64,000 bases of DNA from Escherichia phage BP32. The notes below the pieces were generated by a model. It saw nothing but the letters and a program-made list of their open reading frames with translations, did not search any database and was not told the DNA's origin. Location: sequence record OR906198.1, one strand, 5' to 3'. Made by a program: the position numbers and the translations under genes. This document shows, piece after piece, positions 18,822 to 20,438 of this stretch (the stretch's first letter is position 1; every line of letters begins with the position of its first letter).

Positions 18822-20000
18822 ATGAGCACAGTTTTTAATACAAACCCAGTTGATGTTTTAAAAGAACCTATGTTCTTCGGTTCAGGTCTTGGTATTGCGC
18901 GTTATGATATTCAACGTCATAAAGTTTTTGAAGATTTAACCGAAAAGCAGTTATCATTTTTCTGGCGTCCTGAAGAAGTAAACTTAATGATGGATGCTGC
19001 ACAATTTAACAAGCTTCCTCAGTATCAGCAAGATATTTTTACTAATAACCTGAAGTATCAATCACTTCTAGATAGCATTCAGGGTCGTGCACCGTCTGCT
19101 GTACTCATGTCGTTAATTTCAGACCCAAGTCTTGATACATGGGTTGCTACATGGACTTTTAGTGAAACTATTCACAGTCGTTCATACACTCATATTATGC
19201 GAAATCTTTATACTGATCCGTCAAAGGTATTTGATGAGATTGTATTAGATAAAGCTATCATGAAACGTGCTGAATCTATTGGTCGTTATTATGATGATGT
19301 TCTGGTTAAGACGCGCGAATGGGAAAATGCAAAAGAAATTTTTAAATGTTTTTCCGAAAATGAATATGATTTAGATGCATATTCAAATAGTCTTATGCAT
19401 GTGGAAGAATGTAAATATGCATTGATGAAGTCGCTTTATCTCTGCCTTCATGTTATCAATGCCCTGGAAGCTATTCGTTTTTATGTATCTTTCGCATGTA
19501 CCTTTAACTTCCATAAGAACATGGAAATCATGGAAGGTAATGCCAAGATTATGAAGTTCATTGCACGCGATGAACAGCTTCACCTTAAAGGCACCCAATA
19601 TATTATTCGTCAGCTTCAATCCGGTACTGATGGTGATGAATGGGTTAAAATTGCTCAAGAGTGTGAACAAGAAGCAGTTGATATTTTCATGGAAGTTAAC
19701 CGCCAAGAAAAAGATTGGGCAGTTCATTTATTTAAAGATGGCGATGTTCCTGGATTAAATACAAATAGCATGTGGAGCTTTATTGATTACTTAACTGTAT
19801 CTCGTATGAAACAGTGCGGTCTTCCATGCCCAATTACCGATGCTCCGGTTAAACATCCATATCCTTGGATTCGTGAATACCTTAATTCTGATAATGTTCA
19901 ATCCGCGCCGCAAGAAGTAGAACTGTCATCTTACCTTGTAGCACAGATTGATAATGATGTTGATGATAAAGTTATGATGAGTTTTAAAAAATATTTTTAA
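18822..20000 (+). CDS. nrdB: Ribonucleotide reductase small subunit, uninterrupted (no intron)
   Basis: 392 aa continuous ORF in T4 nrdB position. Confidence 0.92.
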   Translation: MSTVFNTNPVDVLKEPMFFGSGLGIARYDIQRHKVFEDLTEKQLSFFWRPEEVNLMMDAAQFNKLPQYQQDIFTNNLKYQSLLDSIQGRAPSAVLMSLISDPSLDTWVATWTFSETIHSRSYTHIMRNLYTDPSKVFDEIVLDKAIMKRAESIGRYYDDVLVKTREWENAKEIFKCFSENEYDLDAYSNSLMHVEECKYALMKSLYLCLHVINALEAIRFYVSFACTFNFHKNMEIMEGNAKIMKFIARDEQLHLKGTQYIIRQLQSGTDGDEWVKIAQECEQEAVDIFMEVNRQEKDWAVHLFKDGDVPGLNTNSMWSFIDYLTVSRMKQCGLPCPITDAPVKHPYPWIREYLNSDNVQSAPQEVELSSYLVAQIDNDVDDKVMMSFKKYF

Positions 20001-20004
20001 GGAG

Positions 20005-20027
20005 TGGGCCGCAAGGCCCATTTTATT
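20005..20027 (+). terminator. Hairpin tgggcc-gcaa-ggccca plus U-run between nrdB stop and denA start
   Basis: 6 bp GC stem with GNRA loop followed by TTTTATT, ending at the denA ATG. Confidence 0.5.
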
Positions 20028-20438
20028 ATGAAAGAAATTGCAACAGAATATTCATTTATTAAATATACTGAGTTAGAATTAGACGACAACGGAAGTATAA
20101 AACAATTATCTATTCCAAATAAGTATAACGTAATTTATGCTATTGCCATAAATGATGAGCTTGTTTATATTGGAAAAACTAAAAATTTACGTAAAAGAAT
20201 AAACTATTATAGAACTGCTATTAACCGTAAAGACAAAACGTCTGATTCTACTAAATCTGCATTAATTCATACTGCGCTAAAGGAAGGAAGCAAAGTTGAA
20301 TTTTACGCCCGCCAATGTTTTAATCTTTCTATGACAAATGAGTTAGGTACAATGACAATCGCAACGATTGACCTAGAGGAGCCGCTATTCATTAAACTGT
20401 TTAACCCGCCTTGGAATATTCAACACAAGAAAAAATGA
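20028..20438 (+). CDS. denA: Endonuclease II (GIY-YIG family nuclease)
   Basis: [51 protein letters not shown] matches T4 EndoII; 136 aa. Confidence 0.9.

Follow-up and report, generated by a model that had tools for sequence, protein, structure and literature searches.

Six T4 homing-endonuclease and intron sites are empty in the nrdA-nrdB-denA region and its surroundings in Escherichia phage BP32

The locus analyzed here lies in a 64,000-nt stretch of DNA from Escherichia phage BP32 (sequence record OR906198.1; hereafter the window) and comprises the plus-strand genes nrdA, nrdB and denA. The first of these (16506..18770) encodes the large subunit of a class Ia ribonucleotide reductase, a protein of 754 amino acids in which Pfam detects ATP-cone, Ribonuc_red_lgN and Ribonuc_red_lgC domains. 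Since its length equals that of T4 nrdA, it carries no intein. A plus-strand spacer of 51 nt (18771..18821), which contains an inverted repeat TGACTC..GAGTCA and represents the unoccupied insertion site of mobE and nrdB.1, separates nrdA from nrdB (18822..20000, plus strand), the gene of the small subunit of the class Ia enzyme. According to the ORF list, nrdB starts with ATG, has no internal stop and runs uninterrupted for 392 codons to a TAA at 19998-20000. The product contains one continuous Ribonuc_red_sm domain (PF00268, residues 33-335, E=1.4e-36 in Pfam).

A further plus-strand spacer of 27 nt (20001..20027) leads to denA (20028..20438, plus strand), which encodes Endonuclease II (EndoII). 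This spacer contains a GGAG, a hairpin GGGCC-GCAA-GGCCC (20006-20019) and then ATTTTATT, with a T-rich run after the hairpin just 5' of the denA start codon. The hairpin could serve to bring the GGAG near the start codon, or it could be an attenuator. In addition to the ATG at 20028, an alternative GTG start is found at 20004, which is the start used in the T4 RefSeq annotation. EndoII is 99.3% identical to T4 DenA over 144 amino acids, belongs to phrog_1111 ('endonuclease') in PHROGs and contains a GIY-YIG domain (PF01541) with E=1.9e-6 and 28.5 bits, the curated Pfam cut-off being 22.6. The genes rnlA, alc and pseT follow downstream of denA in this order. The original prediction, which was made from the sequence alone and described nrdB as a continuous ORF of 392 codons directly followed by denA, is thus confirmed by the ORF list, the single Pfam domain and the 27-nt spacer.

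To relate the window to phage T4, the whole annotated T4 genome (NC_000866) was aligned with it by blastn, the compared region being 95.5-159 kb. Collinearity extends over T4 95.5-156.7 kb, which the window matches in reverse orientation with 94.3% identity over 56 kb. The left part of the window contains the tail-fibre genes 37-34, followed by rnh, dsbA, 33, 59, 32, frd and td; the middle part contains nrdA, nrdB, denA, rnlA, alc, pseT, cd, 31, rIII, 30 and alt, and the right part the baseplate and head genes up to gene 15. The best database records are Tequatrovirus genomes with 96-97% identity. Together with the collinearity and the nucleotide identity to T4, this places the window, as judged by its sequence, as a segment of a T2-like member of the genus Tequatrovirus. 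While gene order is shared and nucleotide identity is about 94%, only T4 possesses segG, the td intron with I-TevI, mobE, nrdB.1, the nrdB intron with I-TevIII, segE and segD. The window has instead a second full-length alt gene, a gp38 of apparent T2 type and several small optional ORFs. The distal part of gp37 (1103 amino acids) has no nucleotide match to T4, and the N-terminus of gp38 (window 1-303, minus strand, downstream of gp37) presumably belongs to a T2-type adhesin and not to a T4-type assembly chaperone.

The blastn alignment further shows that all six mobile insertions carried by T4 in this span are precisely absent from the window. It breaks exactly at the six element sites and leaves no room for the elements elsewhere, and the junction sequences at the empty sites were read directly. 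The segG site lies in the plus-strand spacer between gene 59 and gene 32 (11603..11701), where the break is at 11603|11639 and T4 holds segG at 147909-148541. In td (plus strand), the alignment breaks at 15635|15640 and the exon junction 15636|15637 is in frame; the T4 td intron, which is 1017 nt long and contains I-TevI, maps after td codon 183. At the mobE and nrdB.1 site (plus strand), T4 holds 139720-140419 where the window has a break at 18766|18822. The 598-nt T4 nrdB group I intron with I-TevIII maps between window positions 19497 and 19498 on the plus strand (blastn break 19495|19498). The nrdB exons join in frame at this point, and only two synonymous differences from the T4 exons adjoin the junction. 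The two remaining sites, both unstranded, are the uvsW-inh spacer (48196..48245, break 48189|48209), which accommodates segE in T4 (112057-112674), and the spacer between gene 24 and gene 23 (52963..53045, break 52974|53035), which accommodates segD (T4 106561-107232). At the segD site only the terminator hairpin of gene 23 is retained, and this hairpin is the sole DNA match to the T4 segD segment.

With respect to group I introns, no insertion was found at the known sites in nrdB and td, where the exons are contiguous, and the window contains no DNA similar to the T4 intron sequences. An Rfam scan for group I introns gave no matches in the window, and it likewise gave none for the T4 locus with its two introns. 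Rfam 15 at the gathering threshold does not report T4's own td and nrdB introns, and therefore negative Rfam results for ORF-containing phage introns are not to be trusted. The original prediction had stated that in T4 this neighbourhood carries the I-TevIII intron and mob-type genes, which are missing here. The T4 annotation, with mobE, nrdB.1 and the intron in place, and the alignment to the window bear this out, and the whole-region alignment, which had been proposed as a check, extends the observation to six missing elements.

Comparison with the spliced T4 NrdB revealed 90.8% amino acid identity. The part encoded by exon 2 is 100% identical at the protein level, and amino acid differences occur only at residues 34-44 and in a loop at residues 172-200 with 4 extra residues. 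The protein differences from T4 are confined to the MobE target and this one loop. At the nucleotide level, exon 1 is 82.7% and exon 2 about 96% identical to T4 in blastn, with a step at the intron site, which is consistent with a history of receipt of mobE and the nrdB intron. The loop itself (window 19297-19467) is hypervariable, with a length difference of 4 amino acids from T4; its end lies some 30 nt before the empty intron site, and it belongs to the five diversity peaks of the td-denA block.

We searched the window for homing endonucleases at other positions. No significant match except denA was obtained by tblastn with the 15 T4 homing endonucleases, nrdB.1 and gp49 as queries, and phmmer (--max) with the 15 endonucleases against all six-frame stop-to-stop segments of at least 20 amino acids detected denA only. 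With GIY-YIG and HNH profiles based on the seg and mob proteins of T4, no match with E<0.2 was obtained in the six frames of the window, and in a sensitive blastn search with the DNA of the T4 elements only the shared terminator hairpin matched. Two tblastn matches were judged to be due to chance: one to I-TevI at 28574-28783 (E=0.38), which falls in gp30.8, a protein with its own Pfam family, and one to SegF at 34065-34400 (E=0.019), which lies in the first alt gene, encoding an Alt-like ADP-ribosyltransferase.

In addition, 134 window ORFs of at least 60 amino acids were scanned with Pfam together with 14 T4 control proteins, and the controls were then scanned alone. Segments below 60 amino acids were searched with T4-derived queries only. 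The scan with window ORFs returned seven GIY-YIG proteins as compared to six for the controls alone, and therefore the window adds exactly one, EndoII. The respective numbers were five and five for SegE_GIY-YIG, four and four for NUMOD3, and four and four for HNH; among ORFs of at least 60 amino acids, no HNH, NUMOD or SegE-type domain is added by the window. Nor did HNH_4 and HNH_5 gain a second member beyond the controls among the Pfam families listed. For families that lack T4 controls, such as LAGLIDADG, the Pfam result covers the families listed, and the window-specific ORFs were scanned individually. The 16 large ORFs left out of the Pfam scan were covered by the tblastn, phmmer and six-frame profile searches. 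Where lengths were compared, the conserved genes are as long as their T4 counterparts or deviate by a few residues only, which speaks against inteins; the exception is gp37, the variable tail-fibre tip.

The hypothetical proteins specific to the window are encoded at 25002-25529, 29289-29903, 23052-23366, 13715-14301 and 14882-15088. When the ORFs without a T4 counterpart were scanned singly, no nuclease domain was found in Pfam or PHROGs, and they were assigned to PHROG families of unknown function. The original prediction that the 64 kb contain no seg- or mob-type ORF and that EndoII is the only GIY-YIG protein holds in the tblastn, phmmer and profile searches and in the Pfam scan with T4 controls. 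The six-frame HMM search that had been suggested for GIY-YIG and HNH domains gave no profile match with E<0.2, and degenerate endonuclease remnants in spacers or hypothetical ORFs, which had been named as the observation that would speak against the claim, were not detected within the sensitivity of the searches.

Several of the optional genes merit a brief description. The ORFs at 25002-25529 (175 amino acids) and 29289-29903 (204 amino acids) are absent from T4, and their products share a distant N-terminal domain (phrog_622/3710/5804) with weak similarity to GoF. An additional, C-terminal domain of the 204-amino-acid protein includes a conserved GTQDRGCQRSGL motif, and only eight homologue clusters exist in 1.8 billion representatives; overall, homologue searches for optional ORFs returned only 2, 4 and 8 matches. 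Two full-length genes for Alt-like ADP-ribosyltransferases are arranged in tandem at 33621-35717 (698 amino acids) and 35721-37778 (685 amino acids), and both products are recognized as ADPrib_exo_Tox by Pfam. T4 has a single alt gene plus the fragments alt.-1 and alt.-2, and several relatives annotate two copies. Between frd and td, a 68-amino-acid ORF (14882-15088, phrog_9550) overlaps the td start as ATGA. T4 has no ORF in this gap, whereas phage T2H (GenBank AY262132.2) and most relatives possess the 115-amino-acid td.1 upstream of td; Shigella phage vB_SsoM_113 has an ORF of 207 nt in the same position. At 31659-31929, two overlapping ORFs of 58 amino acids each, in different frames, occupy the place of T4 gene 30.1 (89 amino acids), which suggests a frameshifted or diverged 30.1.

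To determine how common the endonuclease-free state is, the window was compared by megablast with about 50,000 phage records, among which more than 500 T4-like phages were found. The best record is 96.9% identical over 6 kb around nrdB and 96-97% identical 25 kb further on, and no record in the database is closer than about 97% over long stretches. While the nrdA-rnlA block is present in about 560 phage records, at least 80% of the respective T4 element is covered in 118 records for the nrdB intron, 20 for mobE with nrdB.1, 197 for the td intron, 142 for segG, 53 for segD and 159 for segE. If the elements were distributed independently, about one in five genomes would be expected to lack all six. 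The primary survey of these introns is reportedly that of Sandegren and Sjoberg 2004 (JBC).

The frd-td-nrdA-nrdB region of T2H has the same layout as the window: td is uninterrupted (861 nt), the nrdA-nrdB spacer is 51 nt long and identical at 49 of 51 positions, and nrdB comprises 1179 nt with neither intron nor mobE. T2H differs from the window in that overall identity is only 94% over 4.6 kb, and in that it carries other alleles of the I-TevI target patch and of the td C-terminal cassette, td being 87.7% identical. The arrangement of nrdA, 51 nt, nrdB, 27 nt and denA was the same in all eight close relatives fetched. Sequenced Tequatrovirus isolates, among them vB_EcoM_11B_SA_NWU, ECML-363, SfPhi01, W143 and 303Ecol101PP with 96-97% identity to the window, likewise have identical nrdA-nrdB-denA-rnlA spacing and two alt genes. 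W143 and GEP001 share the I-TevI-site allele of the window; relatives within the genus differ in mosaic patches and in the presence of the td intron, which is carried by ECP52 and IME340. T4 itself has been described as an oddity, no other T-even-like phage coming near its 15 homing endonucleases (review by Edgell, Gibb and Belfort; PMC2988022). As T2H and the relatives share the layout, each element occurs in a minority of records and the review points the same way, the state of the window is an ordinary one: the layout without the six elements is already known as the common, T2-like state for T4 relatives.

MobE nicks T2 nrdB at nt 122-126, and a polymorphic segment at nrdB nt 114-131 separates MobE-sensitive alleles from the T4 self allele (PMC2790892). 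In the window, this target region (18935..18952, plus strand, with the nicks corresponding to 18943-18947) is of the T2 type. Over nrdB nt 90-170 the sequence shares 80 of 81 positions with T2H, while the T4 allele differs at many positions. Both nt 114-131 and the following conserved block coding for FFWRPEE agree with a MobE-sensitive T2-type allele, and the target is near-invariant in six relatives without mobE. Since nrdB carries the T2-type target, we infer that T4 would pass mobE on to this phage in a mixed infection, and in trans the nrdB intron as well.

The target of the td intron endonuclease presents a different picture. The recognition sequence of I-TevI spans about 38 bp, and cleavage takes place 23/25 nt upstream of the point of intron insertion (PMC2988022). 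The corresponding homing site of the window (15610..15654, plus strand) has the allele CAAAGAAGTGTTGACGTGTTCTTGGGCTTGCCATTCAACATTGCA, with the cleavage motif CAAAG at 15610-15614 (CAACG in T4), so that the essential C and G of CNNNG are kept. Eleven of the 14 codons at positions 176-189 of td differ from T4, all of them synonymously, whereas there is hardly any difference in the approximately 50 codons to each side; the clustering of synonymous changes is significant (P<1e-5, scan permutation test). Because the target has been rewritten at synonymous positions, the sensitivity of the phage to I-TevI is uncertain.

We examined the variation of this patch among relatives. A first set of td sequences contained several patch alleles that all encode the same peptide, RSVDVFLGLPFNIA, which makes the variation synonymous. 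This set had been ranked by similarity to the target patch itself and is therefore biased towards diversity in the patch. For a second analysis, seven intronless phages were selected by their nrdA-rnlA block without regard to td. In this set, only five diversity peaks were found in 5.35 kb; the I-TevI patch is one of them and occurs as five alleles, with a pairwise difference of 0.21 as compared to a median of 0.032. The td intron is present in two of eight close relatives. A scan of IMG/VR with a degenerate pattern for intronless td alleles yielded 34 loci, which were discarded: judged by sequence divergence, they apparently belong mostly to more distant T4-like phages and are saturated at synonymous sites, and they accordingly say little about variation within the genus.

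Tentatively, the 45 bp of td at 15610-15654 might be a hot spot at which alleles turn over among intronless Tequatroviruses by synonymous changes only, with at least five alleles for the invariant peptide between near-identical flanks. Such a hot spot would be left by an arms race with the homing endonuclease in which poorly cleaved targets were selected or breaks were repeatedly repaired from diverged templates; the window would then carry an escape allele. The patch allele of the window resembles those of GiZh, KAW1E185 and Mosigvirus, and this resemblance would fit repair tracts from diverged phages at least as well as selection. Elsewhere in the gene, codons 235-268 (window 15790-15890) form an amino acid cassette that differs from T4, T2H and GEP001 and is the same in GiZh, BMB16 and JY01. 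Within the td-denA block, diversity peaks most strongly at this C-terminal cassette.

The precise absence of the six elements, the lack of detectable seg- or mob-like coding sequence and the intactness of the genes were observed directly. They very probably reflect a T2-like Tequatrovirus in which all six T4 homing-endonuclease and intron sites are in the unoccupied recipient state, the elements being optional selfish insertions outside the conserved gene set. Homing takes place in mixed infections, where the endonuclease cuts the empty allele and the occupied allele serves as template for repair of the break (PMC2988022); the six elements spread between co-infecting phages by such recombinational repair. 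Accordingly, nrdA, nrdB, denA and rnlA adjoin directly, and they would be expressed as ordinary early/middle genes.

It is also conceivable that the elements formerly occupied these sites and were lost by precise deletion. The life cycle of homing endonucleases includes degeneration and loss, and both I-TevIII and mobA of T4 are defective; an empty allele may have been recombined in, for example, or a spliced intron lost, and the mosaic structure of nrdB exon 1 and the td target patch indicates that recombination occurs at these places. However, no remnant of any element was found at the DNA or protein level and T2H and many relatives have the same junctions, so that we regard past loss as unlikely, even though deletion and a history without invasion leave the same sequence. 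Far less probable still is a homing endonuclease of undescribed type encoded by one of the optional ORFs, at 25002-25529 or 29289-29903. Both are intergenic insertions relative to T4, have sizes typical of free-standing endonucleases and, with eight clusters among the 1.8 billion representatives, very few homologues. Yet they have no Pfam match, fall into PHROG families of unknown function with nothing but the weak GoF-like match, and exhibit no GIY-YIG, HNH or PD-(D/E)XK motif in the sequences or the alignment; no sequence relative was found in the PDB, and the AF2 model (pLDDT 52.6) is too poor to use.

Somewhat easier to entertain, albeit still doubtful, is the idea that td may have been kept empty by synonymous recoding into a poorly cleaved I-TevI target, i.e., by resistance and not by lack of exposure. 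The 11 recoded codons between near-identical flanks (P<1e-5), the five alleles with an invariant peptide at one of the five diversity peaks in 5.35 kb, and the circulation of the td intron in the same gene pool (197 records and two of eight close relatives) would agree with such a scenario. On the other hand, the critical C and G of the CNNNG motif are retained in CAAAG, I-TevI tolerates many substitutions (PMC5009752), and the resemblance to the GiZh, KAW1E185 and Mosigvirus alleles means that the patch may be a short recombination tract. Our preferred explanation for all six sites, td included, is the unoccupied recipient state of a T2-like phage.

For the T-even phages, these results confirm the view of homing endonucleases and group I introns as optional passengers of the genome, with textbook phage T4 as the outlier. 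The empty sites as such have little discovery value; annotation of the phage should be straightforward, with neither td nor nrdB split, and the phage is predicted to receive mobE-driven gene conversion if it co-infects with T4. The only lead with research value is the peak of synonymous diversity on the I-TevI target, which, if true, would show in nature how a target site evolves under pressure from a homing endonuclease.
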